64,000 nucleotides of DNA from Anaerolineae bacterium (GCA_021324435.1 JAJPIZ010000038.1:126269-190268), one strand, 5' to 3'; positions 7,688 to 53,080 are shown, counted from the first letter of the stretch. Made by a program: numbers and translations. The notes: generated by a model from the sequence alone, not told the origin.

Positions 7688-7818
7688 TGTATGCAAATTC
7701 GTCTCATGTCATTCTGAGCGACCAACGGGAGCGAAGAATCTCGTTTTGTTCGTTCAAAATTTGAGATTCTTCGTCGCTTCGCTCCTCAGAATGACACATG
7801 AAATTGATTTTGCATACA
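7688..7818. repeat. 131-bp nested palindromic element (GTCATTCTGAG...CTCAGAATGAC family), copy 1
   Basis: Outer arms tgtatgcaaa..catGTCATTCTGAG / CTCAGAATGACacatg..tttgcataca. Inner arms GCGAAGAATCTC / GAGATTCTTCG. Confidence 0.8.
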
Positions 7819-7847: not shown

Positions 7848-9038
7848 ATGTCAGAATTTCCTAAACGCCCCTTCGATTTGAGTAGAATTTCTCCAGAAGC
7901 AAAGGAGAAAATTGAAGCTCTTAAAAACTCTTTTAGTGAGGCAGAAGGAAAGGATCTTGACGCATTAATTGCAGCTTCGATAAAGCAAATAGAAATATTA
8001 GAGCAAGAAAAAGAACTACAGAGAGAGAAATATCCAGCCAATCCGCCTAATGACCGTTGTCACAACGCCTTATTGACAGGTATTCTTTTTTCTAACGAAG
8101 CTGGTCTCCGATTGCACGATTTCATTCCCTACTTTTCTACAGATAATGAGAAAGCATACATTTGGACACATACGAAAAATCGAAGTTCTTCTCTAATTGT
8201 AGATGTTGATCCTTCAGTAAAATCTTTAAATGTCTGGAGAAATTTGGCGTCAATCCTAGAATTGACATTAGCAATAAGTTTCAGCTTTGAACATATGGTG
8301 GAATGTGATTACGATTGGATCTATAATTTTCGCCCCGAAATGTCAATAAAAGACTCTGAGTTTCTTTATCCTGAAAATTTCGATAGGCTGTCGGGTTCGC
8401 AACATAAAATTTCATTTTTCGCAGACCATGCAGCGTTAATCGAGTTGCTTTACAGAGATGAACGATTTTATGTCATGGGAACGAATCTTTTGACGTCTTT
8501 TAATAATCATCATTTCTGCTTAATTTGCGCCTTCAGAAAAGATGGTCATCAAGAACACCCAAACCACGAGATACCGAACTGGCAAGTAGCACAAGCAATT
8601 CCCAAAATGGAAGTTGCAATAGTTCAGGCTACAAGAGCAGTTGAAGCGGTATTAGGTAAACCAGGAAAACGAGATGATCAAGCAAAATATCAAAGGGCAT
8701 TAAATAGATGGACTGAGTCTATTGACCTAGAACCAACCGATGTTTTTGCTGTCGCAAATAAAAGTAACATTGACTACTATTATGAGATGTTTGGAATTCG
8801 CGGGGATGCGGCACATAGTTTGGGCTCGTTTCCTTACGAACTGAGCAGGCAACTAACCATTGAAGCTCAGTGTTTTGCATGGGAAGTGTTAAAAAGTTAT
8901 TATCATCAACATGCCTTGAGTAATTCTGATGCGAAAAGAGTTTTAAATTTCAACATGGAATTTATTGAAAGAGAGCCCCAAAATTGGAGCACAACAATGA
9001 CGGCGGATTCTGATCAATATCCACATAATTTGGAGTAA
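7848..9038 (+). CDS. hypothetical protein (396 aa), AT-rich orphan with C-terminal Rx4H (HEPN-like) motif
   Basis: Long ORF in a segment where counted lines are about 33% G+C. N-terminal coiled-coil-like KEKIEALK...ILEQEKELQREK. C-terminal FGIRGDAAHS is flanked by predicted helices. No family recognised. Confidence 0.6.
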   Translation: MSEFPKRPFDLSRISPEAKEKIEALKNSFSEAEGKDLDALIAASIKQIEILEQEKELQREKYPANPPNDRCHNALLTGILFSNEAGLRLHDFIPYFSTDNEKAYIWTHTKNRSSSLIVDVDPSVKSLNVWRNLASILELTLAISFSFEHMVECDYDWIYNFRPEMSIKDSEFLYPENFDRLSGSQHKISFFADHAALIELLYRDERFYVMGTNLLTSFNNHHFCLICAFRKDGHQEHPNHEIPNWQVAQAIPKMEVAIVQATRAVEAVLGKPGKRDDQAKYQRALNRWTESIDLEPTDVFAVANKSNIDYYYEMFGIRGDAAHSLGSFPYELSRQLTIEAQCFAWEVLKSYYHQHALSNSDAKRVLNFNMEFIEREPQNWSTTMTADSDQYPHNLE

Positions 9039-9244: not shown

Positions 9245-10222
9245 ATGCCAAACGACTCGGTCATAGCGTGGTTGCTTGATTCTGACCCTTCCATCCGCTG
9301 GCAGGTGATGCGCGACCTGATCGGCGCGCCCGCGCAGGAAGTCGCGGCCGAGCGCGCCAAGGTCGCAACGGAAGGCTGGGGCGCGCGTCTGCTCGCCCTC
9401 CAGGGCGCCGATGGGTCGTGGGCTGGCACGGCGTGGAACCACGGGTGGGACTCCACGATGCATGTCCTGTCGTTGCTTCGCGAGTTCGGTCTCGATCCCG
9501 CGAGCAATGAGGCGCGTCGTGCAGTGGGACTCGTCCACGACCATGTAAGGTGGATGGGATGGGACTGGGACGGCGCGTGGCGCGGACGGGATTTTGCCGG
9601 CAATCCCTTTTTCGCAGGCGAAGTCGAGCCGTGCATCAACGGACAGGTGGGAGCAAGCGGCGCCTATTTCGGTCAGGACATCCAGCGCATCATGGACCGC
9701 CTGCTCGCCGAGCAATTGCCTGACGGCGGCTGGAACTGCGAGGCCGAGAGAGGTTCGACGCGTTCATCGTTCAATACCACGATCTGTGTATTGGAAGCTT
9801 TGCTTGAATACGAACTGACCGACAGGAACACGCCAGAGGTGACCGAGGCGCGCCTGCGCGGGCAGGAATATCTCCTCGAGCGCCGCCTCTTCCGCCGACG
9901 TTCGACCGGCGAGGTGATCGAACGAGATCGCGAGGGCTCCACTGCGTTTACACGCTTCGCGTTCCCGACCTGGTGGCACTATGATGTCCTGCGAGGGCTT
10001 GAGTATCTGCGCCGCGCTGGCGTCTCACCCGACGAGCGCATGGCCGAGGCGATTGACCTGATCGAGTCCAAGCGTGATGGTGACGGACGCTGGTTGCTCG
10101 AGGTTCAATATTCAGGCACGATGCCGGTTGAGATGCACGAGGCCGAAGGCCGGCCAAGCCGGTGGATCACACTCCGCGCCTTACGCGTGTTGGACTGGTG
10201 GTATTCATCGCAAGACAGATAA
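9245..10222 (+). CDS. prenyltransferase/squalene-oxidase-repeat (alpha/alpha-toroid) protein
   Basis: Repeated Q..DGSW/DGGW motifs: LQGADGSWAG, QLPDGGWNCE, KRDGDGRWLLE. Confidence 0.65.
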   Translation: MPNDSVIAWLLDSDPSIRWQVMRDLIGAPAQEVAAERAKVATEGWGARLLALQGADGSWAGTAWNHGWDSTMHVLSLLREFGLDPASNEARRAVGLVHDHVRWMGWDWDGAWRGRDFAGNPFFAGEVEPCINGQVGASGAYFGQDIQRIMDRLLAEQLPDGGWNCEAERGSTRSSFNTTICVLEALLEYELTDRNTPEVTEARLRGQEYLLERRLFRRRSTGEVIERDREGSTAFTRFAFPTWWHYDVLRGLEYLRRAGVSPDERMAEAIDLIESKRDGDGRWLLEVQYSGTMPVEMHEAEGRPSRWITLRALRVLDWWYSSQDR

Positions 10223-10279
10223 CAAAAATGGGACAGCAATGCTGTCCCATTCAATTTTAACTTGTAGGGGCAAGGCGTC
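10221..10279 (+). repeat. direct repeat, left copy, flanking the TA cassette
   Basis: AACAAAAATGGGACAGCAATGCTGTCCCATTCAATTTTAACTTGTAGGGGCAAGGCGT includes the terminator-like hairpin GGGACAGCA/TGCTGTCCC. It starts right after the stop of the upstream gene. Confidence 0.85.
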
Positions 10280-10320
10280 ACTCCGCCCCTCCATGTGAAC
10301 AATCTGTCTGATCTGGGGTG

Positions 10321-10326
10321 TATAAT
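10321..10326 (+). promoter_or_regulatory. candidate -10 box TATAAT for the TA operon
   Basis: ggtgTATAATttta is followed by SD AAGGAG (10333-10338) and ATG 10348. Confidence 0.35.
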
Positions 10327-10347
10327 TTTAGCAAGGAGAACCCAGTT

Positions 10348-10557
10348 ATGATGCTCAACGAAAAAATTCAGGAATACATCCAGAAACTTCCGCCGTCGCT
10401 TCAGCAGGAAGTGATGGATTATCTGGAATTCCTTATCGCCAAAACAGAACGCGAGGATAAGGAATGGTCACGCTTCTCACTTTCGTCGGCCATACGCGGC
10501 ATGGAAGATGAGCCCGAACTTTACACTGTTGCTGATTTGAAGGTCAAATATTCATGA
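10348..10557 (+). CDS. antitoxin, DUF2281-like
   Basis: The KIQEYIQKLPPSLQQEVMDYLEFLIAK pattern is typical of DUF2281. SD AAGGAG lies 9 nt upstream. ATGA overlap with the toxin gene. Confidence 0.6.
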   Translation: MMLNEKIQEYIQKLPPSLQQEVMDYLEFLIAKTEREDKEWSRFSLSSAIRGMEDEPELYTVADLKVKYS

Positions 10558-10898
10558 AAAGCGCGGGGGACATTGTTCTTTTCCGCTTTCCACAGACAGA
10601 TTTAGCCGAGGGCAAACTGCGTCCTGCGCTCCTGCTTGGCAAACTTCCGGGCGAATATGATGACTGGTTGATCTGCATGATTTCATCTCAAACCCGTCAA
10701 TATTTGCCGGACTTCGATGAGATTGTTCAAGAAAGCGATCCCGATTTCACGCAAAGCGGATTGAAACTCGAAAGCGCAATCCGTGTTGGACGACTGGCAG
10801 TGATCGAGGGTGAACTTTTGCTTGGGGAAGTCGGAAAGATTTCAAATGAAAGATTGAAGCGAATCAAGAAACATCTTTCAGATTGGCTTTCACAGTAA
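10554..10898 (+). CDS. PemK/MazF-family toxin
   Basis: GDIVLFRFPQTDLAEGKLRPALLLGK...WLICMISSQ matches the PemK/MazF SH3-like barrel signature. It is coupled to the upstream small gene. Confidence 0.75.
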   Translation: MKSAGDIVLFRFPQTDLAEGKLRPALLLGKLPGEYDDWLICMISSQTRQYLPDFDEIVQESDPDFTQSGLKLESAIRVGRLAVIEGELLLGEVGKISNERLKRIKKHLSDWLSQ

Positions 10899-10902
10899 CC
10901 AA

Positions 10903-10960
10903 AACAAAAATGGGACAGCAATGCTGTCCCATTCAATTTAACTTGTAGAGGCAAGGCGTT
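10903..10960 (+). repeat. direct repeat, right copy, flanking the TA cassette
   Basis: Same sequence as 10221-10279 apart from one T indel and one G/A mismatch. It starts 5 nt after the toxin stop codon. Confidence 0.85.
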
Positions 10961-11014: not shown

Positions 11015-11545
11015 TTATCTGGTCGGTGCGACGCGCAAGCGACGCGCGAGGAAGATGACCGCGATCAACGTCACGCCGAGGACAACAAGGCCGGGCGCGC
11101 CGTATTCATCCGCAAAGCCGGTGCCGGGTAACGCCGTGGAGGTGGGCACCGTGGTCAGTTGGGCCTGCGCGGCCTGGGTCAAGGCCGCGGCAACGGTGGC
11201 CGTGGCCGGGTCCGGTGTGAGCGCAGAAGGTGAACTGGTCGCGGTAGCCTGCGCGACGACCGGAGTCTGCGTGGGCAGCGGAGTCGAAGTCGCAGTCGGG
11301 AACGCAATGGCCTGCGCGGTGGCGCTCAACGCAATTGCCACTTGCGCGTTCTGCGTGGCGCGCGCGTTGGCCGTGTTTTGCCCGCCGCTTTGACCGGGCA
11401 AAACAAAGAAGACATAATATCCGGCCAGACAGGCAAGTGATAAAAGTACGATCCCGCCCAGAAGGCCCGCCGCAATCAGAAACGTCCGATTGCTGGACTC
11501 TTCCGGGGGTTGAGCATCAAGAGATGATTGATCCGTGTCGTACAT
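11015..11545 (-). CDS. Ala/Thr-rich surface protein with N-terminal signal anchor and C-terminal LPXTG sorting signal
   Basis: C terminus is LPGTG + hydrophobic GLVVLGVTLIAVIFLA + RRLRVAPTR. SD GAGGAG lies upstream. It is the last gene of the operon. Confidence 0.7.
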   Translation of the reverse strand: MYDTDQSSLDAQPPEESSNRTFLIAAGLLGGIVLLSLACLAGYYVFFVLPGQSGGQNTANARATQNAQVAIALSATAQAIAFPTATSTPLPTQTPVVAQATATSSPSALTPDPATATVAAALTQAAQAQLTTVPTSTALPGTGFADEYGAPGLVVLGVTLIAVIFLARRLRVAPTR

Positions 11546-11572
11546 GGTCTTCTCCTCGCGTGATAGGGTAGA

Positions 11573-12631
11573 TTATCCCACAACTTCAAGATTTACAAGA
11601 GGGACGAGCAACTGTTCGCCGTTTTCCAATTTGACTTCCGCGGCGGGTGCGCGCAGGCCGCTCGGGAATGTCGTCAGGCCGGGACGCAACGCCGTGATGC
11701 TGGCCAGCGACCCAGCCGCGGGCGGGCGGCGAAGCCGCACGGTCTGGCCGGGCGCAAAGTCCACCGCATCGGTGGGCGGGGCCGGTTCAGTCGTGACCGG
11801 AAGCGGAATGATCACCTCGGGCCGCGCCCCGCTGTAACGATCAAAGACTTCTGCATTGAGCGTGGCCTCGCGTTTGGCGTTGGATGTGATCAAACGATAC
11901 GCGGCGCTGTTCATCGCAAGCGAGCCGAAGCCATCGGTCAATACAATCGGGTAACGCGCCTCGCGCGCCGCGGGCAAAAGCGACGGATACAAACTGGCAA
12001 GGATGAGACCGCGCAAGGGCAGTTCCGAGGCGGCCTGCAGAGTCTCGGCGTCTTTCACCTGCCCGGCCACGATCACCGAGCCGCGCATACTCGCGTCCAA
12101 ACGGTCAGCGGTCAAAAGCGTGTCGGGCTTTTCAGCCAGGTTGACCATCACGCCCGTGTCCACGCGGCCGTTGCCCCACACGCCTTGGATCAGCGCGCCC
12201 GCGGTTTGAATGACGACGCCGCGCTCGGGGATGACCTGCACGACATTGCCGGAGATTCCGGCGCGCAGTTCCATGCGCGACTCTCCGGACTCGATCAACA
12301 CTTGACCTCCACCGGCCGCCACCACACGACCTTCACGCGGCGCTTTGACCGTCTTCGGCAAAAGACCGCGTCCGCTGGCGATGACCGCGCCTGCGGCGAG
12401 TTTATCGCCCACTTTGCAACGCAAGGCTTTATCGGCGGCATCCGGACTCAAATTCAATAAACGCGCCACATCCAGGAAGACGTGCTCGCGCGCCCAAACG
12501 GCCTCGGCCACGATGTCCGTCGGGCTGACGCGTTGATTCAAGCGCGCCAGTACTTTGCCTTTCACAGGCAAAAGACGTTCACGAACAATGGACGCCAGAG
12601 GCAGAATATGGTGAACAGGAGCCAGTGTCAT
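11573..12631 (-). CDS. hypothetical protein (352 aa), possible barrel-sandwich (lipoyl/HlyD-like) N-domain
   Basis: The long ORF starts 6 nt after the ATPase stop. KVGDKLAAGAVIA...REGRVVAAGGGQVLIE resembles hybrid barrel motifs. No confident family. Confidence 0.55.
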   Translation of the reverse strand: MTLAPVHHILPLASIVRERLLPVKGKVLARLNQRVSPTDIVAEAVWAREHVFLDVARLLNLSPDAADKALRCKVGDKLAAGAVIASGRGLLPKTVKAPREGRVVAAGGGQVLIESGESRMELRAGISGNVVQVIPERGVVIQTAGALIQGVWGNGRVDTGVMVNLAEKPDTLLTADRLDASMRGSVIVAGQVKDAETLQAASELPLRGLILASLYPSLLPAAREARYPIVLTDGFGSLAMNSAAYRLITSNAKREATLNAEVFDRYSGARPEVIIPLPVTTEPAPPTDAVDFAPGQTVRLRRPPAAGSLASITALRPGLTTFPSGLRAPAAEVKLENGEQLLVPLVNLEVVG

Positions 12632-12637
12632 CTGTGT

Positions 12638-14404
12638 TTATCCTTGAGTCGCGCCAACCGTCCACAGCCATTTCTTGATCAACTCACGGCGGCGCACCGG
12701 ATCGTCCGGCAGAATCAACGGGCGGCCGCGCGCGTCAATGACCACGCCCATCGTTCCGCCGCTGACTGGAATCGTTCCGCCGCGCCCGGGACCAAAGCCA
12801 ATGTCCGCGCCGTGTTGCGGTTGAAGAGTCAACTTTGCCGATTGGCCGAGCGCCAGTGGAAGGACTTCGATATTTCCGAATTTCACATCGGCGCGCGCTT
12901 CGGTTCCATTGGAATAGGCCAAACGCGCGCGCAACACCAGCGAACCAAACGCGGCGGAGGCAACGACTGAGATCACCGCGCCCATGCTTTGGAACGCGCC
13001 GGATTCGATGACTTGAACCGGCAGGATGCTGTTGCGCGCCGCGGCCGCGCCGAGCAACGGCATGAGATTATTTCTGTCCATGAAGACTGCGGTCGCGCCG
13101 ACAGGTTGAATGGCGTCCAGTAATAACAAAAGGCTTTGTCCCGGGCTGGGCGCATCGCCCAACGCGCCGCCACCCGCGATGATCGGTTCAAAATAGGGAA
13201 GCAGTCCAGGCTTGGGCGGACGCGCCGAGCGCGGAAAGTCGCGCTTGGCCGTTTGCATCGCGAGATACAACGCCTGCCGCGTCACAGCCTGCGCGATCGC
13301 CTGATCTTCTTTGCTGGCCGGGACGGAAGAGGGATACAACGACTTCTGAAATAAATAATCACGCAGGACGCCGGTGGAAATATCCAGCGACGACCAGCGC
13401 AGAATATCTTCGAGTGTGGTGTATTGAAGTAATACCGGCAGATTTTCACCGAGTCCAAATTGCGGATACACCCCCAGCGTGTTGCGCTCTTTGAAGCCGG
13501 CCGCGATCACCGCCGCCGACGCGCCGATGTCCACACCCAGGATTCCGCCGCGCCTCCCGCCATACACCTGACCGAGGAAACGCAACATGCGCCCCACTGC
13601 ATACGCCGCAGGCAGAACATGCCCGCCGGACCAGGTCTCCAACACGTCCACGCCTTTGAGTTGGCGTCGGCGAACTCCGAGATAGAGCGAGGCCAATTCG
13701 CGCGCGGCCGGTTCGAGGTCCTCGGTATCGAGCGAGGGACGCACATTCGGGCTGAAATGCAATTCAGCCGTCACGCCGCCGAGCAAGGACTTGACTTCAT
13801 CGTCGAGTTTTTGATTGCCCGCAAACAAAACCGCCGGGCGTTTTTCGGGCGTGAGCAGATAACCGGCCAGCCCCACCGGCTCGAGCATTTTTTGAATCGA
13901 GCGCGACGCGCCGCCGTCCGCGCCGCCGGTGATGATGACCACGTCAGGCCGCAGGCGCATGAGCGTATCAATTTGCTGATCGGGTTTGCGATGATCGGTC
14001 AGGCTGAACGACTCAAGCACACGCGCGTATGTTGTTTCTGCAAGACGCCGCGCGCTTTCAAGCGAGACATCCGAAAGCAGTCCAACGATGACCGTCTTGA
14101 GCGCGGGACCCGCCGAGAGTGTGGACACAAACGCGTCCACACCAGACCCGTCAACCTGCGACGGCGTAATGAGTTTGCGATCCGCGTCGAGGAGCGTGCG
14201 CCCCGTCACCGATTGCAAATTGGCAATCGCATTGCGGACGCCTTCGCTCACATCCTTGAACGGCGCCTCCGCCGTGGACGGCGCGCTGCCGGAGGCCAGG
14301 AAGCGATACTCGCCTTCGACAACATCGAAGAGCACGGCGCGCGTGTTCGCGCCGCCGATGTCCACTGCCAGAAGAGAGTCGCCTTGAACGAGAGAAACAG
14401 GCAT
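12638..14404 (-). CDS. ASKHA (actin-fold) ATPase, GlmL/MutL-like (588 aa)
   Basis: LLAVDIGGANTRAVLFD (phosphate-1), DVVIITGGADGG (GGTDGG-like), and a second-half motif ILGVDIGASAAVIAAG. Confidence 0.7.
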   Translation of the reverse strand: MPVSLVQGDSLLAVDIGGANTRAVLFDVVEGEYRFLASGSAPSTAEAPFKDVSEGVRNAIANLQSVTGRTLLDADRKLITPSQVDGSGVDAFVSTLSAGPALKTVIVGLLSDVSLESARRLAETTYARVLESFSLTDHRKPDQQIDTLMRLRPDVVIITGGADGGASRSIQKMLEPVGLAGYLLTPEKRPAVLFAGNQKLDDEVKSLLGGVTAELHFSPNVRPSLDTEDLEPAARELASLYLGVRRRQLKGVDVLETWSGGHVLPAAYAVGRMLRFLGQVYGGRRGGILGVDIGASAAVIAAGFKERNTLGVYPQFGLGENLPVLLQYTTLEDILRWSSLDISTGVLRDYLFQKSLYPSSVPASKEDQAIAQAVTRQALYLAMQTAKRDFPRSARPPKPGLLPYFEPIIAGGGALGDAPSPGQSLLLLLDAIQPVGATAVFMDRNNLMPLLGAAAARNSILPVQVIESGAFQSMGAVISVVASAAFGSLVLRARLAYSNGTEARADVKFGNIEVLPLALGQSAKLTLQPQHGADIGFGPGRGGTIPVSGGTMGVVIDARGRPLILPDDPVRRRELIKKWLWTVGATQG

Positions 14405-14407
14405 GTG

Positions 14408-15058
14408 TTAGCCGAGTCCGAAGAAGGTTCCGAAGAAATGCAGACGTTCGATGAAAGCGGTCAGCGCCGCCGAATAAACTCCCGCGAACAACGTGCCAAG
14501 TGTGATGGCAATAAAAATACTGCCGACGAAAGCGCCGATTTCGATCAAACCGAAGCGGCGCACAGATCCGTCCGATGCGGTGCGCGCGCCGAAATGGAAA
14601 TAGATCAGCGTGAACACAACGCCGACCAGCACGATGACCGCGTTGACGAATTGAAACGCGGCAGGCGAGGCGAACGCGTCAACGGTCGCGCCGATTTGAG
14701 GGAAGAGAGTCCCGGTCACCGCGCCGCCGACTGCCACCGCCGCGCCCACTCCCGCGAGCACGGCCATCGCCGGAGCGCCAATCCGGCTGGTCGAAGGGAT
14801 GATCTTCATGAGCAGGAAGCCGCTCAACAACAACGGAACGGCCAGCGTAATTTTTTCGGTGGAGGAGCCATACACCAGCGGCGTAAGTAGATCAGGCAGA
14901 ATCACTTGACGGAACGCGACTGCCGCGACGTATCCTGCAGCTACACCGACGAAGATATAAATTGCAATGCGAAAGAAAAGATTATCCCCAATGAGATAAC
15001 TGAAGACCATCAAAGTCAACAAGAAGGCGATGATGCCAAAGATAAAATCGAGGGACAT
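14408..15058 (-). CDS. polytopic membrane protein (216 aa)
   Basis: ATG at 15058 overlaps the upstream stop (TAATG). About 6 hydrophobic helices. The 15109 start would overlap the upstream gene by 51 nt. Confidence 0.6.
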   Translation of the reverse strand: MSLDFIFGIIAFLLTLMVFSYLIGDNLFFRIAIYIFVGVAAGYVAAVAFRQVILPDLLTPLVYGSSTEKITLAVPLLLSGFLLMKIIPSTSRIGAPAMAVLAGVGAAVAVGGAVTGTLFPQIGATVDAFASPAAFQFVNAVIVLVGVVFTLIYFHFGARTASDGSVRRFGLIEIGAFVGSIFIAITLGTLFAGVYSAALTAFIERLHFFGTFFGLG

Positions 15059-16170
15059 TATGATCCCTCCTGCGCGCGGCGATCTCGCAGACCCAGCGCG
15101 AAATTCCACAGCCCGCCGAGCAGAATCATCACGACCGCGAACAACAGACCAAGACTATACGCGTCCCAATAACGACGGACGACAGAATCGGGTTGACCGC
15201 CATTGGCCTGCTCTGCGCCAGCTGCGCCGTTCAATCCCGCCACCATGCCATTGACCTGGCCTGCATCAACATATGGCAGGAACATCGGTCCGGCCTGCGC
15301 GCTGGAGATAAGAATCAATGAGGCGTTGCCACGCGTCAGCGCAGATTGCTCGATCCACACACGGCCCGATTCGAGCCGATCCGTCATGATGATGATCGCG
15401 GCGAAATCCGAAAGACGCGTCACGTTTTGCAATGGGGGCATTTGCCAGGCCGCGCCCTGGTCAACATCATATGGCATCACAAGCGATGGACTTTGAGTAA
15501 AGCCATACACGCCGGTCAGCCCGCCGGGCAGATAGCCCAAGTCTACATATTGCACGCCGCGCTGATAACTGCGATTGACCAGCACACTGGACATGAATCG
15601 TTCAGCCAGCGCGGAGCCGGTGGCGGAGGTGGATATCAAAGTCAAGCGCGGATGTTTCAACAAGAGCAGATGATCCATCAACGACGCGCCGCTGGCTTCC
15701 ATCTCGCCCACTGTGGAGGGTTCATAATCAAAAACCACCAGCACCGGCGCATCAGGCGGGACTGCTTCGACTGCCGCGATCGCATTGCTCGTTTCGATTG
15801 GAACGTCCGCGGGGAGTGGAAAGATTTGTGTTCCAACAAAGGTTGCGCCAGCCAGAGCGATACCGAGCAACACCGTGATGAGCCAGCGCAATACGCGTTG
15901 CGAAGAGACTACCGACCCAGCCTTCATTGGAACGGGCGAGGTCTCCGCCGCGAGAATCTGTTCGAGAAGGGCGGCGTGAGCCTGCTGTTCTTCGCTCGCG
16001 TTGAGTTTGATCGAGTGCGCTTTTGGTTTGCTGGAAGGAGTCGCTACGCCGGGAACGGATGGCAAGACTCCATGCAAGCCGGCCAACGGCCCGCGCGTTT
16101 CCAATTCAGAATCAGCCGCGCCGCTGGATGATTCGGGCAAGGCCGCTTCGACCGGCCGCATGGCCTGCAC
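15058..16170 (-). CDS. bitopic membrane protein with large extracytoplasmic domain (370 aa from GTG 16170)
   Basis: TM helices VLRWLITVLLGIALAGATFVG and LGLLFAVVMILLGGLWNFALGL. The start is uncertain. It overlaps the upstream ORF by 127 nt. Confidence 0.55.
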   Translation of the reverse strand: MQAMRPVEAALPESSSGAADSELETRGPLAGLHGVLPSVPGVATPSSKPKAHSIKLNASEEQQAHAALLEQILAAETSPVPMKAGSVVSSQRVLRWLITVLLGIALAGATFVGTQIFPLPADVPIETSNAIAAVEAVPPDAPVLVVFDYEPSTVGEMEASGASLMDHLLLLKHPRLTLISTSATGSALAERFMSSVLVNRSYQRGVQYVDLGYLPGGLTGVYGFTQSPSLVMPYDVDQGAAWQMPPLQNVTRLSDFAAIIIMTDRLESGRVWIEQSALTRGNASLILISSAQAGPMFLPYVDAGQVNGMVAGLNGAAGAEQANGGQPDSVVRRYWDAYSLGLLFAVVMILLGGLWNFALGLRDRRAQEGS

Positions 16171-17444
16171 CCACGAGGCAATTCCACGGGCGCAATCGCT
16201 TCTTCGCTCTGCGCGGCGGGCGGCAAATTTTCTTCGGATGTCTGGGCTGATGGCGCAACGCTTGTCAGCCAGTCCGGCATTTGCATCGAAGAGAAGATCG
16301 CGTCCACATCCGCGCTGGACATTGCATCTTCAGTGAAAACAGGCGATGCGGATGGAGTCTTTGCAGGAGGTTCTTCGGGCGTGAGAGCAGGCGTGGCGGG
16401 TCCGCTCGGTTCGGATGGCTGTGAGCTCGCGGGCTTGAGCGACGCGAGCCAATCAGGCATCTCGCTCGGAACAGACGTTTCTCCCGATGAGGGCGCTTCA
16501 GGTTGAACAGCTTGCGGCTCTTCGCGGGACGGGGCGGCGGCGTTCAACCAATCGGGCACTCCCTCCGCAGACGGCGCGGACGGAGTCTCCGCGCCAAAAC
16601 TTTTCAGCCAATCAGGGACATCGCCCTGGGCTTGAGTCTGGGCAGGCGGTTCATTGCTTGTTGGAGGTTGTGGAGGAACAACAGGCGCGCCTGTATCAAG
16701 ATTTTTCAACCAGTCCGGAGTTTCACGATGGACAATGCCGGATGCCTCCTCCAATGGCGCGGTTTCCGGCTTGAGCCAATCTGAATTGCTTGTATCGAAA
16801 TTGGAGAAAGGTTCAGGCTCAGAAGAAACCGATTCAACGGGAGCCGCTTCGGGGGCTGTGCCGAGCGACGTCGAAGCATCAAAAGAAGAAGCGGAGGCAG
16901 AGGCCTGTTTGAACCAATCGGATAATTCATCCCTTTCAGGCGCGGGCTCCTGCGGAGTCATCCATGAAGGCGCCGCGTTTTCATCGTCACTCGGAGAAGG
17001 CTCCGCCATTTCATCACGGCCGAGTTCCACGAATTTGACTTGCGCATCCTCGGCTTCGGCCTTCTTCTTTTTGGCAGGCGAACCGGTGATATTTGCCAGC
17101 CAGTCTGGTACGTCTTCCTCTTCTTCCTGACTTTGAGAGGCAAGCCCGGCCAACAGATCGGGACCGCTCGGTACAGACTTTGTTTTTTGTTTTTCTTCCG
17201 CGCGAGCGGCTTCCTCCTCCGCGGAACGGCGCGCTTGCTGGCGCGCGTTGCGAAGCCACTGCGGCAGGATCGGCTCGAGTTCGGAGGTGACTTTTTTGGT
17301 CGGCGCCTGACCCGGAGAAATGGGCGCGTTCTCGCCTCTTAACGGACCGGTCAGCGGCTGGAGGCGCGACTGGCAATTCTGGCAGAATTCCAAATCCGCC
17401 GGATTAATCTCGCCGCAGACGGGACACTTGATCGTATCGGCCAT
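16044..17444 (-). CDS. zinc-ribbon protein with about 10 xDWL repeats in an acidic P/S/E/A-rich region
   Basis: MADTIKCPVCGEINPADLEFCQNCQ (CxxC..CxxC). Repeats: LPQWL, DVPDWL, APSWM, LSDWF, NSDWL, TPDWL, DVPDWL, GVPDWL, EMPDWL, QMPDWL. ATG 17444 overlaps the upstream stop (TAATG). The C-terminal 40 aa look out of frame. Confidence 0.65.
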   Translation of the reverse strand: MADTIKCPVCGEINPADLEFCQNCQSRLQPLTGPLRGENAPISPGQAPTKKVTSELEPILPQWLRNARQQARRSAEEEAARAEEKQKTKSVPSGPDLLAGLASQSQEEEEDVPDWLANITGSPAKKKKAEAEDAQVKFVELGRDEMAEPSPSDDENAAPSWMTPQEPAPERDELSDWFKQASASASSFDASTSLGTAPEAAPVESVSSEPEPFSNFDTSNSDWLKPETAPLEEASGIVHRETPDWLKNLDTGAPVVPPQPPTSNEPPAQTQAQGDVPDWLKSFGAETPSAPSAEGVPDWLNAAAPSREEPQAVQPEAPSSGETSVPSEMPDWLASLKPASSQPSEPSGPATPALTPEEPPAKTPSASPVFTEDAMSSADVDAIFSSMQMPDWLTSVAPSAQTSEENLPPAAQSEEAIAPVELPRGCRPCGRSKRPCPNHPAARLILNWKRAGRWPACMESCHPFPA

Positions 17445-18055
17445 TACTTCCCACCATACGGACGATCCGCGCCGAAGAGCACGCGCAGACCGGTCATCAG
17501 TGTGCCGAGCGCGACGCCGATCAAGATGCCGCGCGCGCCGCCCAGCGCCCAGGCATGTTGAAACCACGGACGGACGAAATTGTTCAACGGTCCGATCTCA
17601 CCGAACGGCAAAGTGGCGGATGCAATCAACAACAGCAGAGCCGTAGCCAAAAAGACGACGCTCATCAAGTTGGCGCGGCGGCGCAGGAGGCGGATGCTGG
17701 CATATACAAGCGTCACGGCCAGCAAAGCCATCAATGTGGCCTCCACCGGCACGATGATCGAATTGACCAGCAGGCGCATGTTCGAGTCATCGGGGCCAAG
17801 CAACATGCCAAAGATCAACGTCGCGATCAAACAAATCAACAAGATGGCGCTGTAGAGACTTCCTTTTTCGCGCCGCGAAATTTTCCCCCAATGCACCCAG
17901 ATCAAATTGAACACGCCCACCAACGCGGCGGCGCCGGAAAGAATAATGGCCCAGTTCAATATCATGCTTTGAATCGGAGCCAGAGTCGGGATGAAGTATC
18001 CGATCAATACCAGCAGGCCAGTGGCTACCGCGAGAACGACAGCGATTGCGCGCAT
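17444..18055 (-). CDS. polytopic membrane protein (203 aa)
   Basis: About 6 hydrophobic helices. The start overlaps the upstream stop (TAATG at 18053-18057). Confidence 0.6.
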   Translation of the reverse strand: MRAIAVVLAVATGLLVLIGYFIPTLAPIQSMILNWAIILSGAAALVGVFNLIWVHWGKISRREKGSLYSAILLICLIATLIFGMLLGPDDSNMRLLVNSIIVPVEATLMALLAVTLVYASIRLLRRRANLMSVVFLATALLLLIASATLPFGEIGPLNNFVRPWFQHAWALGGARGILIGVALGTLMTGLRVLFGADRPYGGK

Positions 18056-18792
18056 TAGATCATTCCGAGCAATTTCAACGCCGCGCCGGCCAGCAACGCG
18101 AGGATGATGAGCCAGCGCAAAATATCCTGAACGGTCAAACTGGCGGTGTGCGACTGCGTTGCGCCGAGGTACGCGCTGGTTGCAAAAAGTTCCTCGCCGA
18201 TCAACGCTTCGGGCGCGGACGCATACAAGGCGGCCTGCGACGAAAGATCATCGCTGGCCCCCACCAAAAAAGCGTTCTCGCGTTCAGCGGCATCAGCCAA
18301 TAACGCGGCCTCCACGCCGAAGTGACCGATCAACACACTGGCCGAAACGCTTTCATCGCGCAGGATGGGCATGGCGCCTGCCGCAAACGAAAACGGGGTC
18401 ATGCCCGTTAATCGTCCCGTGGTGGGTTGGTAATATTCGCCCGCGCCCGCGGCCTGATACCCGGCCTCGAGCGTGTCTTGCGCGAGCAAAGCCAGAGATG
18501 CTTCACCTGCCGCGGCGATGGGCGGACGGTCGCTCAATGAGGTTCGTTCGGTGAGATGCCGCAACATGCCGAGACCTGATAACGGCGCGCCCGCGTTGGG
18601 CGTGATCAAACTCTCGCGGCCCAGCGCGATAAACAGCCGCGTCCCATCTTCGACGCTCAGGCCAAAGGCGCGATACAGGCGCGTCAGCGCCGGGATGGCA
18701 CGCAGTTTGACAGGCGATTTTCGTTTTGCAATGGAGAATAATAGAAGGAGCAGAGCAGAAAAGCCGACGAGGCCAAGCCCGATCAGGTTCAT
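18055..18792 (-). CDS. membrane protein (245 aa) with N- and C-terminal TM helices
   Basis: MNLIGLGLVGFSALLLLLF... and ...ILRWLIILALLAGAALKLLGMI. ATGA overlap with the upstream gene. Confidence 0.6.
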   Translation of the reverse strand: MNLIGLGLVGFSALLLLLFSIAKRKSPVKLRAIPALTRLYRAFGLSVEDGTRLFIALGRESLITPNAGAPLSGLGMLRHLTERTSLSDRPPIAAAGEASLALLAQDTLEAGYQAAGAGEYYQPTTGRLTGMTPFSFAAGAMPILRDESVSASVLIGHFGVEAALLADAAERENAFLVGASDDLSSQAALYASAPEALIGEELFATSAYLGATQSHTASLTVQDILRWLIILALLAGAALKLLGMI

Positions 18793-19028
18793 GAGTCCGC
18801 TCCCGGGTCCAGAAAGGATGCGAAGGCGCGGGTCTCATCATCTGACTCAAGCGTGCGGGCCAATGCGTCCGCGCTTTCGCCGAGAAACGGACGTCCCGCG
18901 TACAGCAGTTGAGCAGAGAGCAAAGCCAGCGGCCTGCCTGCATCAAGGAGCCATGAGGCCAGTCCATCGAGTTGGTAACGGCGCAGAGTCTCAGCCCACC
19001 TCGACCAGTGTTCGCGCGGCGATTTCAT
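18789..19028 (-). CDS. small soluble hypothetical protein (79 aa), first gene of the operon
   Basis: ATG at 19028 (MKSPREHWSRW...). The longer 19121 start runs into the palindromic repeat. Confidence 0.45.
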   Translation of the reverse strand: MKSPREHWSRWAETLRRYQLDGLASWLLDAGRPLALLSAQLLYAGRPFLGESADALARTLESDDETRAFASFLDPGADS

Positions 19029-19116
19029 GCGCAAAAGTATAGCATATTTTGATTCTGAGCCGCCACATAAGAAATGACCAGAATTGCAGATAGATTGCAG
19101 ATCTAAAAATATCCAT

Positions 19117-19250
19117 GTCATTCTGAGCCGCTGGTGGTCGAGTAGCCGCGGGCAAAGCGAGCGGCATACGAGACCAGGCGGCGAAGAATCTCATCTTGGG
19201 ATGAAGAGGAAGATTCTTCGCTCCCCGCGTAGCGGGTCGCTCAGAATGAC
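19117..19250. repeat. 134-bp nested palindromic element (GTCATTCTGAG family), copy 2
   Basis: GTCATTCTGAGC...CGAAGAATCTC...AGATTCTTCG...GCTCAGAATGAC lies in the divergent intergenic region. Confidence 0.8.
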
Positions 19251-19295
19251 AAGGTCCGCCATAGTATAATTTCAGCGAATTCACCCGCGGAGGAA

Positions 19296-19700
19296 ATGAT
19301 GACCGATAAAAAAATCCGTGTGCTGGTGGCCAAGCCCGGCCTCGACGGGCATGACCGCGGCGCGAAAGTGGTGGCGCGCGCCCTGCGCGATGCCGGCATG
19401 GAAGTGATTTACACCGGCCTGCGCCAAACCCCCGAGATGATCGCCGAGGCGGCTCTGCAGGAAGATGTGGATGTGGTGGGACTTTCGATTCTATCGGGCG
19501 CGCACATGGCGCTCGCGCCGCGCATCATGGAATTGCTCAAGGCCAATGGCCAGACTCACGTCAAAGTATTCATCGGCGGGATCGTGCCGGATGAAGACAT
19601 CCCGCGGCTGATGGAGATCGGCATTACGGGCGTGTATGGGCCGGGAGCCTCGACGGAAGATATTGTCAAAGAAATTCGGAGCGCGATAAAGGGAAAATAA
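19296..19700 (+). CDS. methylmalonyl-CoA-mutase-type cobalamin-binding small subunit/domain
   Basis: [36 protein letters not shown] carries the DxHxxG B12-binding signature. Confidence 0.9.
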
Positions 19701-19753
19701 CCACGGATGAACGCTGATGTTTGGTATCAGCGTTCTTTTGTGGCGACGAATGT

Positions 19754-20773
19754 ATGAGCCTCGCAGATTCAGTTCTCACTGGTGATCGTCTTTCATTAGC
19801 GCGGGTGTTGACCCAGGTCGAAAACGACACGCCCGATGGCCGCGCCGCGCTGGATGCGTTGTTCCCGCACACGGGCAAGGCGCATCTCATCGGCGTGACC
19901 GGCGCGCCGGGCACGGGCAAATCGTCGCTGGTCAATCAACTGGCTCTGCATTTCCGCAAACAAAATAAACGCGTGGCGATTGTGGCTGTTGATCCGTCGA
20001 GTCCGTTCACGGGCGGCGCAGTGCTCGGCGACCGGGTCCGCATGAAGGATTTGAGCGGCGACGCGGGCGTCTTCATCCGTTCGATGGCGACGCGCGGCTC
20101 GCTCGGTGGATTGGCGCAAGCCACCGCGGGCGTGGTGCAAGTCTTCGACGCGGCGGGCTACGATGTGATCATGATCGAAACGGTCGGCGCGGGACAAAGT
20201 GAAGTGGACATCGCCCGATTGGCCCATACCACGCTGGTGGTCGAAGCGCCCGGCCTCGGCGACGACATTCAGGCCATCAAAGCCGGCATCCTTGAAATCG
20301 CAGATATTCTTGTTGTGAACAAAGCGGATCGTCCCGGCGTGGAAAACACGGAGAAGGCGTTGAAGTCCATGCTGGATATGGCGCACCCAACACAGAGAGT
20401 TTATTTGCATCATGGGACCCCCCTCGTCCCTTCGGGACACTCCCCCCAAGTTCAAAGAACTTGGGGGGAGATGGAGGGGGGCTGGATCCCGCCAATTCTC
20501 AAAACCGTCGCGACCGAGGGAAAGGGAATCGCCGAACTCATCGAACAGATCGAGAAACACGCCGCGCATTTACACGTCAGCGGGGATTGGGCCGCTCGTG
20601 AGCGCGCCCGCCTCGAGTCCGAGCTGGAAGCGGCGCTCCAGGAAACGTTGATGAGTCAATTCCGAGAGCGCGTTTCCGATCAACAATATAATGAAGTCAT
20701 GCGTCAGGTGTTTGAACGAAGCTTGTCGCCGGGCGAGGCGGTGAAAAAGTTGACGAATGGGAGGGCCAAGTGA
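19754..20773 (+). CDS. meaB: MeaB/ArgK G3E-family GTPase (mutase chaperone)
   Basis: P-loop GVTGAPGTGKSS, ETVGAGQSE, VVNKAD. The ORF opens at 19721; ATG 19754 (MSLADSV) is preferred. Confidence 0.9.
   Translation: MSLADSVLTGDRLSLARVLTQVENDTPDGRAALDALFPHTGKAHLIGVTGAPGTGKSSLVNQLALHFRKQNKRVAIVAVDPSSPFTGGAVLGDRVRMKDLSGDAGVFIRSMATRGSLGGLAQATAGVVQVFDAAGYDVIMIETVGAGQSEVDIARLAHTTLVVEAPGLGDDIQAIKAGILEIADILVVNKADRPGVENTEKALKSMLDMAHPTQRVYLHHGTPLVPSGHSPQVQRTWGEMEGGWIPPILKTVATEGKGIAELIEQIEKHAAHLHVSGDWAARERARLESELEAALQETLMSQFRERVSDQQYNEVMRQVFERSLSPGEAVKKLTNGRAK
20417..20482. repeat. GC-rich nested palindrome inserted in frame in meaB
   Basis: CCCCCCTC..CTCCCCCCAAGTT-caaag-AACTTGGGGGGAG..GAGGGGGG encodes TPLVPSGHSPQVQRTWGEMEGG. 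Confidence 0.75.
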
Positions 20774-39895: not shown

Positions 39896-41275
39896 TCATG
39901 GACGAACGGGTTCCACCCACAATCCGATGCACGATCTGGAAACTGTGTCAAAGACGGCTTCCAATGGATAAACTTCTTCGCGGTTGAAAAACGGATTATA
40001 GAGACGCACCCAGCCGCTGTTTCCCACCGGGATGAGGTCTTCGAGCACAACCCAATGGCGGACTCTGCTTGTCCATTTGATGACGCCATCTACCGCGGAT
40101 AACCCCGTTCCGACAATCGCAACCCTTCCTTTATCCAGCATCTTTCGCAAGTAGCCCGGCGTGAGAGGCACTGTACCGGCCTCGGCTCGGAAGAACTCAT
40201 ACTTCTTCTTTATAACATCCAGCATCGCTTCAAGGTCCAGAATGGTTGTGCCCGAATCTTTTTCCAGAATTCCCCTTGCTCTGGGAGAGGACGGAAGCCA
40301 TTGCTTCAGGAACGGAATGACATCGCTCGCGCCTAAAGCGGCAACGCAGAACTGACCACAAAGATTGTGGTTGATTTGCGCCCAGCCAATCGCGCCCTTT
40401 ATGTCAATATATTGAAAACCGCGCCGCCCTGCCTTGCGAGCATCTTCAATTTCTGAATCTGCGGGCAGACGCAACAGCGGATGTTGTAAATCGAAAACTT
40501 TGTCCTTGTTTGCGGGAATTGACAGATCGTTATCCGGCGTTGGAGTTACAAACTCTTCCAGCAGGCTGGCTTTATACCAGCCTTTAAATTCCCGGTCGAG
40601 TTTTGTAAATTTCACTTCATACCAGGTTTTATATCTTGTTTCCTGATCGTTGAAGCAGACGTGACCTGTCCAACGCACGACATCTTTGGGAACAACCCAG
40701 GCCGGAGCCGCAGAACTTTGAGATGGCTTGGCAAATATCCTCTCGGGGCGGAAGCTCCACATATCCCGCCCGCCTGCAAGAATGACCAGCCACTCATCTA
40801 TTGTTGCAGTGGTCTCTCGCTTCTGTGATTTGATTTCTGTCACCCAACTATCCCATTCAGAACGTCGAAGTGAGACCGCTTGCCGGATAAGGTCTCCAGC
40901 AGATGGTTTTTGACCGGCTCGAATTGCTTCCAGATAACCGGGAGGCAACCACGGAGGCTCTTCTCCGGAATTCAACCATGATGAAAAAGTCGAAAATGAA
41001 AGGGATGCAGGAACAGAAGGAATGGCAACGTTATCAAAATCAACTTTCGGAAAAACTTCTTCGACTGGTTCATAATAAATCACTGCAGATTTCAGGAGGT
41101 ATCCAAAAATTGGCGGTTGCCATCTGGTGGCCTGCACTTCTACCATCCTATCCCCCGCCTCCTGCAAAATTTGAACATGATCTTGCGGATTAAGCATTTC
41201 CAAAACTCGTGATTTGAGGTCCGGTTGACTCCGCAAATTGACCGATGAGCATGTTACGCCGTAACGAGTGTCCAT
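39896..41275 (-). CDS. SH3b-like repeats plus C-terminal papain-fold (C39-like) cysteine peptidase domain
   Basis: SSVNLRSQPDLKSRVLEMLNPQDHVQIL (SH3b-like). Candidate catalytic Cys in HNLCGQFCVAALG and His in RHWVVLED. AAGGAG lies 12 nt upstream of ATG 41275. No signal peptide. Confidence 0.55.
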   Translation of the reverse strand: MDTRYGVTCSSVNLRSQPDLKSRVLEMLNPQDHVQILQEAGDRMVEVQATRWQPPIFGYLLKSAVIYYEPVEEVFPKVDFDNVAIPSVPASLSFSTFSSWLNSGEEPPWLPPGYLEAIRAGQKPSAGDLIRQAVSLRRSEWDSWVTEIKSQKRETTATIDEWLVILAGGRDMWSFRPERIFAKPSQSSAAPAWVVPKDVVRWTGHVCFNDQETRYKTWYEVKFTKLDREFKGWYKASLLEEFVTPTPDNDLSIPANKDKVFDLQHPLLRLPADSEIEDARKAGRRGFQYIDIKGAIGWAQINHNLCGQFCVAALGASDVIPFLKQWLPSSPRARGILEKDSGTTILDLEAMLDVIKKKYEFFRAEAGTVPLTPGYLRKMLDKGRVAIVGTGLSAVDGVIKWTSRVRHWVVLEDLIPVGNSGWVRLYNPFFNREEVYPLEAVFDTVSRSCIGLWVEPVRP

Positions 41276-41368
41276 AAGTCGCACCAACTCCTTGAAAATT
41301 ATAAACAGGCTTATCTTCCAGGCCTATGGTCAAAAATATCTCAATGGCAATGGGCACTTTTGAGAAAT

Positions 41369-52000: not shown

Positions 52001-53080
52001 AAGATAATCCTTGTTGCGATGGAAAAGATATTGCGCGCGCAAAGCCTGTTCGAGATAACCGGTGAGGCGCGCCTGTTCGGGCGTGACATCTTCCGGTCGG
52101 TCCGGATCCATGAGCGGCTGGCCCAAAATGGCTTCCACATGTCCCACGCCGACTTCCGTTAAACTCACCGTCCGGTCTTTTTCGTTGACCTCGTAATCTT
52201 CGGGCTTGAGTTGCTTGACGATCTGCGCCATGCGGCCATACCACTCGAGGTCGCCCTGCGCCGGCCCGGAGATGATGAGCGGCGTGCGCGCTTCGTCAAT
52301 CAGCACGTTGTCCACTTCGTCCACGATGGCGTAGTAGTGACCGCGTTGGACGCGATCGCTGAGGCGCATCGTCATGTTGTCGCGCAGATAATCGAAGCCG
52401 AACTCGGAGTTTGTTCCATAGGTGATGTCGGCTTTATATGCCTCGGCGCGATCCACGAGCCGCAAATGATTCTGATCCTCGTGCGGCGATTCTTTTTCAA
52501 AATCAACGATGAAGGCCTTCTTGCCGTTCTCGGTCGCGGCGGCCATTTGCAACACACCAACGGACAGCCCAAGCATGTTAAAGATGGGAGCCATCCAGCG
52601 CGCGTCGCGTCGCGCCAGATAATCATTGACCGTGACGAGGTGCACGCCGCGCCCGGTCAATGCGTTGAGATACAGCGGCAGAGTCGCGACCAGCGTTTTG
52701 CCCTCGCCTGTGCGCATCTCGGCGATCCTGCCGCGATGCAAAACAATGCCACCAATTAGTTGAACATCATAGTGGCGCAGGCCGATGGTTCGTTTGGAGG
52801 CTTCGCGCACTGCGGCGAACGCCTCGGGGAGGATTTCATCTAAGACCCCCCTTTCATCGCCCTCACCCCTGTCCCTCTCCCAATTTTGGGAGAGGATGTC
52901 CGAAGGACGGGTGAGGGAGAGTTTCCCTCTAAACTCCTCCGTCTTGGCGCGCAAAGCCTCGTCCGAGAGTTTTTCGAACTCCGGCTCGAGGGCGTTGATT
53001 TGGTCAACAATCTCGCTTAATTTTTCGATTTCACGCTTGTGGGGGTTTCCGCCGACCACACTGACGAATTTCTGAAGCAT
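49022..53080 (-). CDS. secA: preprotein translocase ATPase SecA, unusually long (1352 aa), no C-terminal Zn finger
   Basis: [14 protein letters not shown] (Walker A), [61 protein letters not shown]. Ends ...[10 protein letters not shown]. Confidence 0.95.
52860..52917. repeat. GC-rich nested palindrome inserted in frame in secA
   Basis: CCCTCACCCCTGTCCCTCTCCCA-atttt-GGGAGAGGATGTCCGAAGGACGGGTGAGGG encodes [18 protein letters not shown] on the minus strand. Confidence 0.75.

Follow-up and report, generated by a model that had tools for sequence, protein, structure and literature searches.

A conserved eight-gene operon with a GlmL-like ASKHA ATPase in Anaerolineae-type Chloroflexota: a possible envelope-related membrane complex

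Here we describe an operon found in a 64,000-nucleotide stretch of DNA from an Anaerolineae bacterium (GCA_021324435.1, JAJPIZ010000038.1:126269-190268; hereafter the window). Its genes, lettered A-B-C-DE-F-G-H-I in their 5' to 3' order on the minus strand, surround a gene for an ATPase of the ASKHA type related to GlmL/MutL. The operon has eight genes and is conserved as a unit in Anaerolineae-type Chloroflexota. We tentatively propose, at a little short of an even chance, that it encodes a single uncharacterised, envelope-related and ATPase-associated membrane complex. Any specific function of such a complex is much less likely than this general reading. Its genes are co-directional and have conserved overlaps; their products are four membrane proteins, three soluble cytoplasmic proteins (including the ASKHA ATPase) and one that bears a wall-sorting signal. 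This combination suggests that they belong to one membrane-associated complex.

The system lies outside every described kind. Searches of Pfam, NCBIfam, PADLOC, PDB sequences and folds, and the literature assign it to no characterised system. In particular, the anti-phage models of PADLOC gave zero matches with all eight proteins, and literature searches on DUF6754, PF13941, PDWL, GlmL/ASKHA, TIGR01319 and Anaerolineae with LPXTG returned nothing relevant. Since sensitive searches leave the components unassigned and the gene order is strongly conserved (see below), the original prediction of an undescribed system, made from the sequence of the window, stands. "New" is meant here as uncharacterised, not as a proven new working principle.

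Gene content and conservation of the operon

Every open reading frame (ORF) named in the original prediction was recovered from the ORF listing of the window, on the minus strand and at the same coordinates (Table 1). Adjacent genes are tightly packed, with an ATGA overlap at A/B (18789-18792), TAATG overlaps at B/C (18053-18057), C/D (17442-17446) and E/F (15056-15060), and gaps of 3, 6 and 27 nt at F-G, G-H and H-I, respectively. These seven junctions had been given for nine genes; the omitted one is D/E, where D (16044-17444) shares 127 nt with E (15058-16170), the two being read in different frames. The count of nine has to be reduced to eight, as D and E are a single gene (DE) that is frameshifted in the window. 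Two independently assembled sequences encode the exact G protein: L001, a 295-kb metagenome contig from ENA, and L002, the Logan assembly of SRR5581483 (loci are labelled L001-L089). Both are identical to the window over 21.7 kb save for one C (CC at 16177-16178 in the window, CCC in both), giving a DE stretch of 2387 nt in the window vs 2388 nt in L001 and L002, and each has one gene of 795 amino acids (aa) in place of D and E. The DE orthologues of about 70 loci are also single ORFs, with a median of 835 aa and a range of 615-2662 aa. The single 795-aa gene of L001 and L002 and the single-ORF orthologues therefore make this an eight-gene operon.

In the window, DE was split either by an assembly error in a homopolymer or by a frameshift of recent origin. 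Truncated versions of DE also occur in several long-read metagenome-assembled genomes (MAGs), which would fit an assembly error. A programmed frameshift at D/E was considered and ruled out, as the orthologues and the two identical assemblies keep a single frame.

Table 1. Features of the operon in the window, with gene matches (tblastn) and junctions to the next gene in the 80 loci of the genome-collection scan
Feature	Position	Strand	Description	Loci with match (of 80)	Junction to next gene in the loci (nt)
Operon	11015-19028	-	From ORF listing of the window		
Divergent intergenic region upstream of A	19029-19295	.	Presumed promoter region; nested inverted-repeat element at 19113-19254		
Gene A	18789-19028	-	79-aa soluble protein	69	-4 in 42/64 loci
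Gene B	18055-18792	-	245 aa, DUF6754	71	-1 in 51/65 loci
Gene C	17444-18055	-	203-aa polytopic membrane protein, about six transmembrane (TM) segments	72	-1 to 2 in most loci
Gene DE	15058-17444	-	One gene, 795 aa when intact, split by a 1-nt deletion in the window	77	About 1
DE, N-terminal zinc ribbon	17358-17438	-	Residues 3-29; DUF7577 (E 1.8e-7), weaker DZR and Zn_ribbon		
DE, acidic disordered arm	16150-17120	-	Ten [DE]-x-P-[DS]-W-[LMV] motifs		
DE, frameshift site	16177-16178	-	1-nt deletion, CCC>CC relative to L001 and L002		
DE, TM1	15838-15894	-	From hydropathy		
DE, extracytoplasmic Rossmann-like alpha/beta domain	15154-15837	-	Residues 537-764; predicted topology		
DE, TM2	15097-15153	-	From hydropathy		
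Gene F	14408-15058	-	216-aa polytopic membrane protein, about six TM segments	79	2-3
Gene G	12638-14404	-	588-aa ASKHA ATPase	80	3-4
G, Pfam MutL domain	13004-14371	-	Residues 12-467		
G, family-specific C-terminal domain	12641-13003	-	With conserved basic/aromatic tail		
Gene H	11573-12631	-	352-aa soluble protein	79	Median gap 60, no overlap
Gene I	11015-11545	-	176-aa protein	79	
Terminator-like hairpin 3' of I	10908-10934	-	12-bp stem followed by a T-run; consensus scan only		

A scan of a genome collection with G produced 80 loci, which were then searched by tblastn with the proteins of the window. All are from Chloroflexota MAGs (with titles such as Anaerolineae, Anaerolineales, Ca. Villigracilis, Ca. 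Desulfolinea and similar), and their G proteins are 47-84% identical to that of the window. The eight genes have the same order and orientation in all 80, wherever the contig is long enough. The flanking genes differ from locus to locus, with no flanking family common to more than 26 of the 80. This gene arrangement is far beyond chance.

Seven further, distant loci (L083-L089) also keep the gene order. The full eight-gene pattern is present in L085, L086, L087 (Thermoflexales) and L089, and the 3' part of it in L088. L083 and L084 keep B-C-DE-F-G-H, with G 35.6%, H about 34% and DE about 30% identical to the window proteins, an A-like ORF upstream of B, and unrelated flanks. Gene I is absent from these two loci; the invariant core is therefore (A)-B-C-DE-F-G-H, with I as a frequent eighth member. 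Synteny in other genomes, which the original prediction had named as one test of its claim, is thus strong across the 80 Chloroflexota loci and the seven distant ones.

The cytoplasmic proteins G and H

The original prediction placed a GlmL/MutL-like actin-fold ATPase at the centre of the operon, and this is borne out by the match of G to the Pfam MutL family (PF13941), with 207.6 bits vs a cut-off of 27 (E 3.9e-61). The predicted ATPase motifs DIGGANTR, GGADGG and DIGAS are all present, together with AGGGA, and residues G17, T21, G160, G161, G165, G294 and G412 are invariant in 26 orthologues. By its PF13941 match, G is a bona fide ASKHA protein. It always lies between F and H, both in the 80 loci and in the distant ones. 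In NCBIfam, G is far below the cut-offs of the GlmL equivalog NF040745 (101.4 bits vs 475) and of the TIGR01319 subfamily (74 bits vs 204), and at 588 aa it is larger than the single-domain GlmL proteins (about 450-460 aa). All of the 120 relatives of G that were listed have PF13941; they range from 476 to 666 aa, and 115 of them have 550-666 aa. The C-terminal extension of about 120 residues is conserved, ends in ...RRRELIKKWxW and occurs in nearly all of these 120 relatives. Single-sequence and profile searches detected no sequence relative of G in the PDB, and the FtsA, PilM, MreB and ParM models of Pfam and NCBIfam gave no match with G at E<=0.1.

Divergently and directly upstream of the operon (19296-20773, plus strand) lie MeaB and a gene whose 134-aa product resembles the B12-binding small subunit of a mutase; the original prediction mentioned neither. 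This raises the question of whether G is a GlmL-type reactivating chaperone of a B12-dependent mutase, here serving the divergently encoded methylmalonyl-CoA-mutase-type small subunit and MeaB, the membrane genes being incidental. The Pfam MutL membership of G, the NCBI name "glutamate mutase L" and the presence of the B12-binding/MeaB neighbourhood in 25-26 of the 80 loci would agree with this. We nevertheless consider it very unlikely. The neighbourhood is absent from 54 of the 80 loci and from every distant locus, and an adjacency seen in only 25-26 suggests a lineage-specific rather than functional association, which is probably coincidental. In addition, the GlmL and TIGR01319 scores of G are far too low, G has an extra conserved C-terminal domain and always sits between F and H, only 2-4 nt away from either, and the operon includes no glmS, glmE or aminomutase genes. 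The absence of glutamate mutase E and S genes had been pointed out in the original prediction and is upheld here. The likeliest role of the operon would be cell-envelope organisation or maintenance, not B12-enzyme reactivation.

The name "glutamate mutase L", given by the NCBI pipeline to some G orthologues (P0308, P0326, P0338, P0340 and P0381), is probably a misleading over-annotation, in view of the operon context and the sub-threshold GlmL scores. One match with this name is labelled Gemmatimonadales and lies on a 2-kb contig, which may be a binning error.

Protein H belongs to a large family, with 2066 clusters (50% identity) at E<=1e-3 and 583 at E<=1e-30; the best 150 family members are mostly about 350 aa long, the shorter ones being partial. 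In the AlphaFold2 model of H, the N-terminal domain is rich in beta-strands; an alpha/beta domain occupies the centre, and the C-terminus forms a small KOW/SH3-like barrel. Foldseek matches of this model include Thermotoga maritima NusG, RnfC, NqrA and KOW/Tudor folds, all weak and at the level of single domains. Among 52 diverse members, RnfC_N was matched in 29 (weakly, best E 5.4e-8), KOW in 20 and NQRA_N in 9. The Foldseek matches of the model and the RnfC_N and NQRA_N matches among members agree with the barrel-sandwich-like segment predicted for the 352-aa protein. H has neither a conserved cysteine cluster nor a flavin motif, and single-sequence and profile searches against PDB sequences gave nothing meaningful. 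The invariant QGVWGNG of H (residues about 143-156, at about 12164-12205 in the window) was compared with the CW_7 cell-wall-binding repeat of Cpl-7 (PDB 5i8l); we regard the likeness as chance, as it covers about 10 residues with per-domain E-values above 3.

Membrane and surface proteins and how they might work together

Four of the products, B, C, DE and F, are predicted integral membrane proteins. B belongs to the Pfam family DUF6754 (PF20539; 89.8 bits vs 27, E 2e-25; residues 9-242 matching profile positions 18-248 of 257), and DUF6754 is encoded at the same operon position in L001, L002, L085, L086, L087 and L089. B has a TM segment at either end and a central domain of about 195 aa that is predicted to be cytoplasmic; a profile search found no PDB relative. 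C and F, which are also found in the distant loci (F in all of them), match no Pfam family in any of 16 and 17 diverse orthologues, respectively. An all-against-all hhalign comparison of the eight families detected no paralogy (best probability 3.5%), and C and F have in common only a short LGTLxxG stretch in the last TM segment. The small soluble protein A has no Pfam or NCBIfam match; its orthologues have a median of 80 aa, and a recognisable homologue lies 5' of B in L083-L087 and L089.

The size and TM count of C and F resemble those of the six-TM, ~200-aa proteins RnfA and RnfE. Together with the RnfC_N and NQRA_N matches in the N-terminal domain of H (in 29 and 9 of the 52 members, at best E 5.4e-8 for RnfC_N) and the RnfC and NqrA hits of Foldseek, this might suggest an Rnf/Nqr-like ion-translocating redox complex, with H in the place of RnfC/NqrA, C and F in that of RnfA/RnfE and DE in that of the bitopic RnfG/NqrC. 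The Rnf-Nqr model was matched by none of 33 C and F sequences, however, and hhalign detects no C-F paralogy; both a conserved cysteine cluster and a flavin motif are lacking in H, the Foldseek TM-scores are about 0.13, and neither Rnf nor Nqr has a place for an ASKHA ATPase. Such a redox complex is extremely unlikely in our judgement.

DE is a bitopic protein which consists, in order, of a zinc ribbon, an acidic disordered arm, TM1, a 228-aa external domain and TM2. The zinc-ribbon "adaptor" that the original prediction treated as a separate protein is therefore not one, but the cytoplasmic arm of this bitopic protein. CxxC...CxxC is present in 45 of 64 DE orthologues, and the DE proteins of L085 and L086 have no zinc ribbon. 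As judged from the orthologue sequences, the zinc ribbon is dispensable and the constant feature of the arm is a tandem E-x-P-D-W-L array. The motif has the consensus [DE]-[LTVM]-P-D-W-L-x-x-[LM] and occurs in 5-15 copies in orthologues (median 10), with 32 copies in the 1324-aa DE of L087 (L087:5313-9287) and 47 in the 2662-aa DE of L088 (L088:151-8139). Its density is 12.6 per 1000 aa in DE vs <0.1 in G, H and B; in the rest of the window, the pattern occurs five times, each time singly and never as an array. The residue following W-L is not consistently basic across the motif copies.

The AlphaFold2 model of the external domain of DE has high scores (pLDDT 94.4, pTM 0.89) and shows a doubly wound alpha/beta fold with a long TM helix on either side. 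The domain has no sequence match in Pfam or the PDB, and Foldseek retrieved nothing from the PDB at E<=0.001; its best matches were generic Rossmann-like folds (E 0.011, TM-score <=0.33). Its invariant polar residues, including E77, W193, E195, Q196, S211 and Y221 (numbering of the modelled segment), sit after strands. The L085 orthologue, which is one of those without a zinc ribbon, has an SH3_3 domain in the external part.

The tandem array also bears on the possibility that the operon encodes a membrane-anchored cytoskeleton, in which G polymerises like actin, ParM or FtsA and the tandem motifs of DE bind successive G subunits, so that filaments are nucleated or tethered at the membrane. 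The C-terminal D-I-P-x-F-L peptide of FtsZ binds FtsA, and tandem WH2 motifs nucleate actin. The E-x-P-D-W-L pattern, which we take to be similar to the FtsZ peptide, its 5-47 tandem copies in a disordered arm and the actin/Hsp70 fold of G would be in keeping with a cytoskeleton, as would the conserved basic/aromatic tail of G, which has a modest amphipathic moment and is reminiscent of membrane-targeting tails. On the other hand, G has no match to the FtsA, MreB, ParM or PilM models, and we know of no GlmL/EutA/DdrA-type ASKHA protein that polymerises. Unlike in FtsZ peptides, the residue after W-L is not consistently basic; ftsZ was sought in the sequences gathered here for a comparison of the C-terminal peptide, and none was found. 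We regard a cytoskeleton of this kind as unlikely, with a small but real chance of being right.

Protein I starts with an acidic N-terminus, followed by a conserved and invariant juxtamembrane SNRTF, a first TM segment and an external part rich in Ala and Thr. LPGTG (11117-11131) comes next, ahead of another TM segment and an RRLR tail; the C-terminus in the window reads LPGTG...LVVLGVTLIAVIFLARRLR. The LPXTG-type signal of the original prediction is thus present, followed by TM and RRLR, and it is kept in orthologues, where LPxTG, LAxTG, LPDGG, VPETG and LSETG variants occur (78 I orthologues and the distant loci). The acidic N-terminus with its TM segment is unlike a typical cleavable signal peptide. 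The LPxTG-type signal and the N-terminal membrane anchor suggest that I could be covalently linked to the wall.

I comes last in the operon in 79 of the 80 loci, as it does in five of the seven distant ones. One may therefore ask whether the other products form a dedicated machine for the insertion, export or anchoring of I, with B, C, DE and F as conduit or insertase, G and H providing energy or chaperoning, and I as the sortase-attached client. The position of I, its unusual acidic N-terminus and the invariant SNRTF, which suggest specific recognition, would suit such a machine, and GlmL relatives are regarded as chaperone-like. L083 and L084, however, keep the B-to-H core although they lack I, and C and F match no transporter or insertase family; the H-I junction is non-overlapping, with a median gap of 60 nt, and ASKHA ATPases are not, to our knowledge, protein-translocation motors. 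On balance this reading seems to us decidedly unlikely.

Returning to the envelope-related membrane complex, we infer the following arrangement. B, C, DE and F would form an integral membrane platform, with G and its constant partner H (barrel-sandwich and KOW) on the cytoplasmic face. The arm of DE, with its 5-47 copies of E-x-P-D-W-L, may offer G and/or H a multivalent docking array. The motifs might dock G, in analogy to the FtsZ tail with FtsA and PilN with PilM; alternatively, their partner might be the KOW/SH3-like barrel of H. Driven by ATP, G would open and close, and this movement would be passed on through the platform to the outer face, where the Rossmann-like domain of DE may present a conserved ligand-binding crevice for an envelope ligand. 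As a membrane-to-wall tether, I would keep its N-terminal TM segment in the membrane while its C-terminus is covalently linked to the wall.

In its most far-reaching form, the analogy would give a new membrane scaffold, in which a GlmL-type ATPase is recruited, and possibly built up into oligomers or filaments, by up to 47 DE motifs. Such a scaffold would follow the logic of tandem WH2 motifs or of the FtsZ tail with FtsA, in a prokaryotic version of its own. Coupled through the membrane to a new external Rossmann-like domain and a sortase-linked tether, it would serve as a lineage-specific envelope organiser of filamentous Chloroflexota. We give this version a low likelihood.

Several points weigh against the proposed complex. 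The TM topologies come from a hydropathy/positive-inside script only, the model of H is only moderate (pLDDT 74, pTM 0.45), and the binding partner of the E-x-P-D-W-L motifs, if they have one, is guesswork. We know of no demonstrated membrane-machine role for GlmL-type ASKHA ATPases. As for the tether, I, missing from L083 and L084, stands outside the invariant core, and it matches none of the curated anchor models (Pfam Gram_pos_anchor, NCBIfam LPXTG) at E<=0.1, while a search by motif only for a sortase found no TLxTC-motif ORF in the 64-kb window. Finally, the taxonomic range was read from record titles and a few named matches.

Surroundings, meaning and comparison with known systems

Upstream of A, a scan of the divergent intergenic region found no sigma-70-like site, and Rfam gave no match across 9-21 kb of the window. 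The inverted repeat at 19113-19254 in this region has outer arms CCATGTCATTCTGAGC / GCTCAGAATGACAAGG and inner arms GCGAAGAATCT / AGATTCTTCGC. Its terminal 12-mer GTCATTCTGAGC is found again at 7708-7795, where it likewise forms an inverted pair (4 found vs 0.33 expected), and the element looks like a small repetitive extragenic palindromic (REP)- or miniature inverted-repeat transposable element (MITE)-like palindromic repeat. At the other end, a DUF2281/PemK-type antitoxin-toxin pair (10318-10898, plus strand) converges on gene I. The 12-bp-stem hairpin between this pair and I seems to be repeated, with LKLNGTALLSHFC translated in ORFs at about 10105-10302 and 10727-10954. Elsewhere in the window, a SecA ORF (49022-53080, minus strand) encodes 1352 aa, about 400 aa above the usual length; about 190 residues separate its SecA_DEAD match from its P-loop_SecA match, and the C-terminus is extended by a long stretch. 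Pfam gave nothing at E<=1e-4 for three sizeable ORFs, at 7848-9038 (396 aa), 9245-10222 (325 aa) and 39896-41287 (463 aa).

The Chloroflexota are abundant, mostly uncultured filamentous bacteria, whose envelope architecture and cell biology are poorly understood. The eight-gene module is intact from about 84% to about 35% protein identity and is likely to be central for its carriers; the marker protein H alone accounts for hundreds of 50%-identity clusters in metagenomes. If the proposal is right, the GlmL/MutL branch of the actin/Hsp70 superfamily would gain a role outside B12-enzyme operons, the system to which Pfam DUF6754 belongs would be defined, and a bacterial membrane protein would provide a striking multivalent array of short linear motifs. 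At present, the value of the operon is that of a well-defined, testable lead.

The closest known family, for the single component G, is GlmL/MutL, the accessory protein of clostridial glutamate mutase (PF13941, NF040745, TIGR01319). G has the whole MutL ASKHA domain of about 450 residues with the nucleotide-binding motifs, but three of the four features that define GlmL/MutL do not apply to it: it is far below the curated cut-offs, carries an extra C-terminal domain of about 120 residues with a tail, and never adjoins mutase E/S genes, lying always between F and H.

The operon pairs an ASKHA protein with a bitopic membrane protein that has a short acidic/Pro/aromatic motif, similar to D-I-P-x-F-L of FtsZ, on its cytoplasmic arm. 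This recalls membrane-associated actin-fold ATPases that dock on short cytoplasmic peptides: FtsA docks on the FtsZ C-terminal peptide or on FtsN, and PilM on the N-terminus of PilN, which provides the analogy used above. There are differences: G has no sequence match to the FtsA, PilM or MreB models, DE has 5-47 tandem copies of its motif vs one, and neither the divisome nor type IV pili include counterparts of B, C, F and H. H resembles RnfC and NqrA in starting with a barrel-sandwich hybrid domain (weak RnfC_N and NQRA_N matches) followed by an alpha/beta domain, but it has no cofactor motifs and ends in a KOW/SH3-like barrel, and its membrane partners match no Rnf or Nqr subunit. Lastly, I ends like the sortase-anchored LPXTG proteins of monoderm bacteria, with LPGTG, a hydrophobic segment and a basic tail. 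It differs from them in leaving the curated models unmatched and in having an acidic N-terminus with a TM anchor instead of a classical signal peptide, so that it could stay membrane-anchored at its N-terminus after cleavage.

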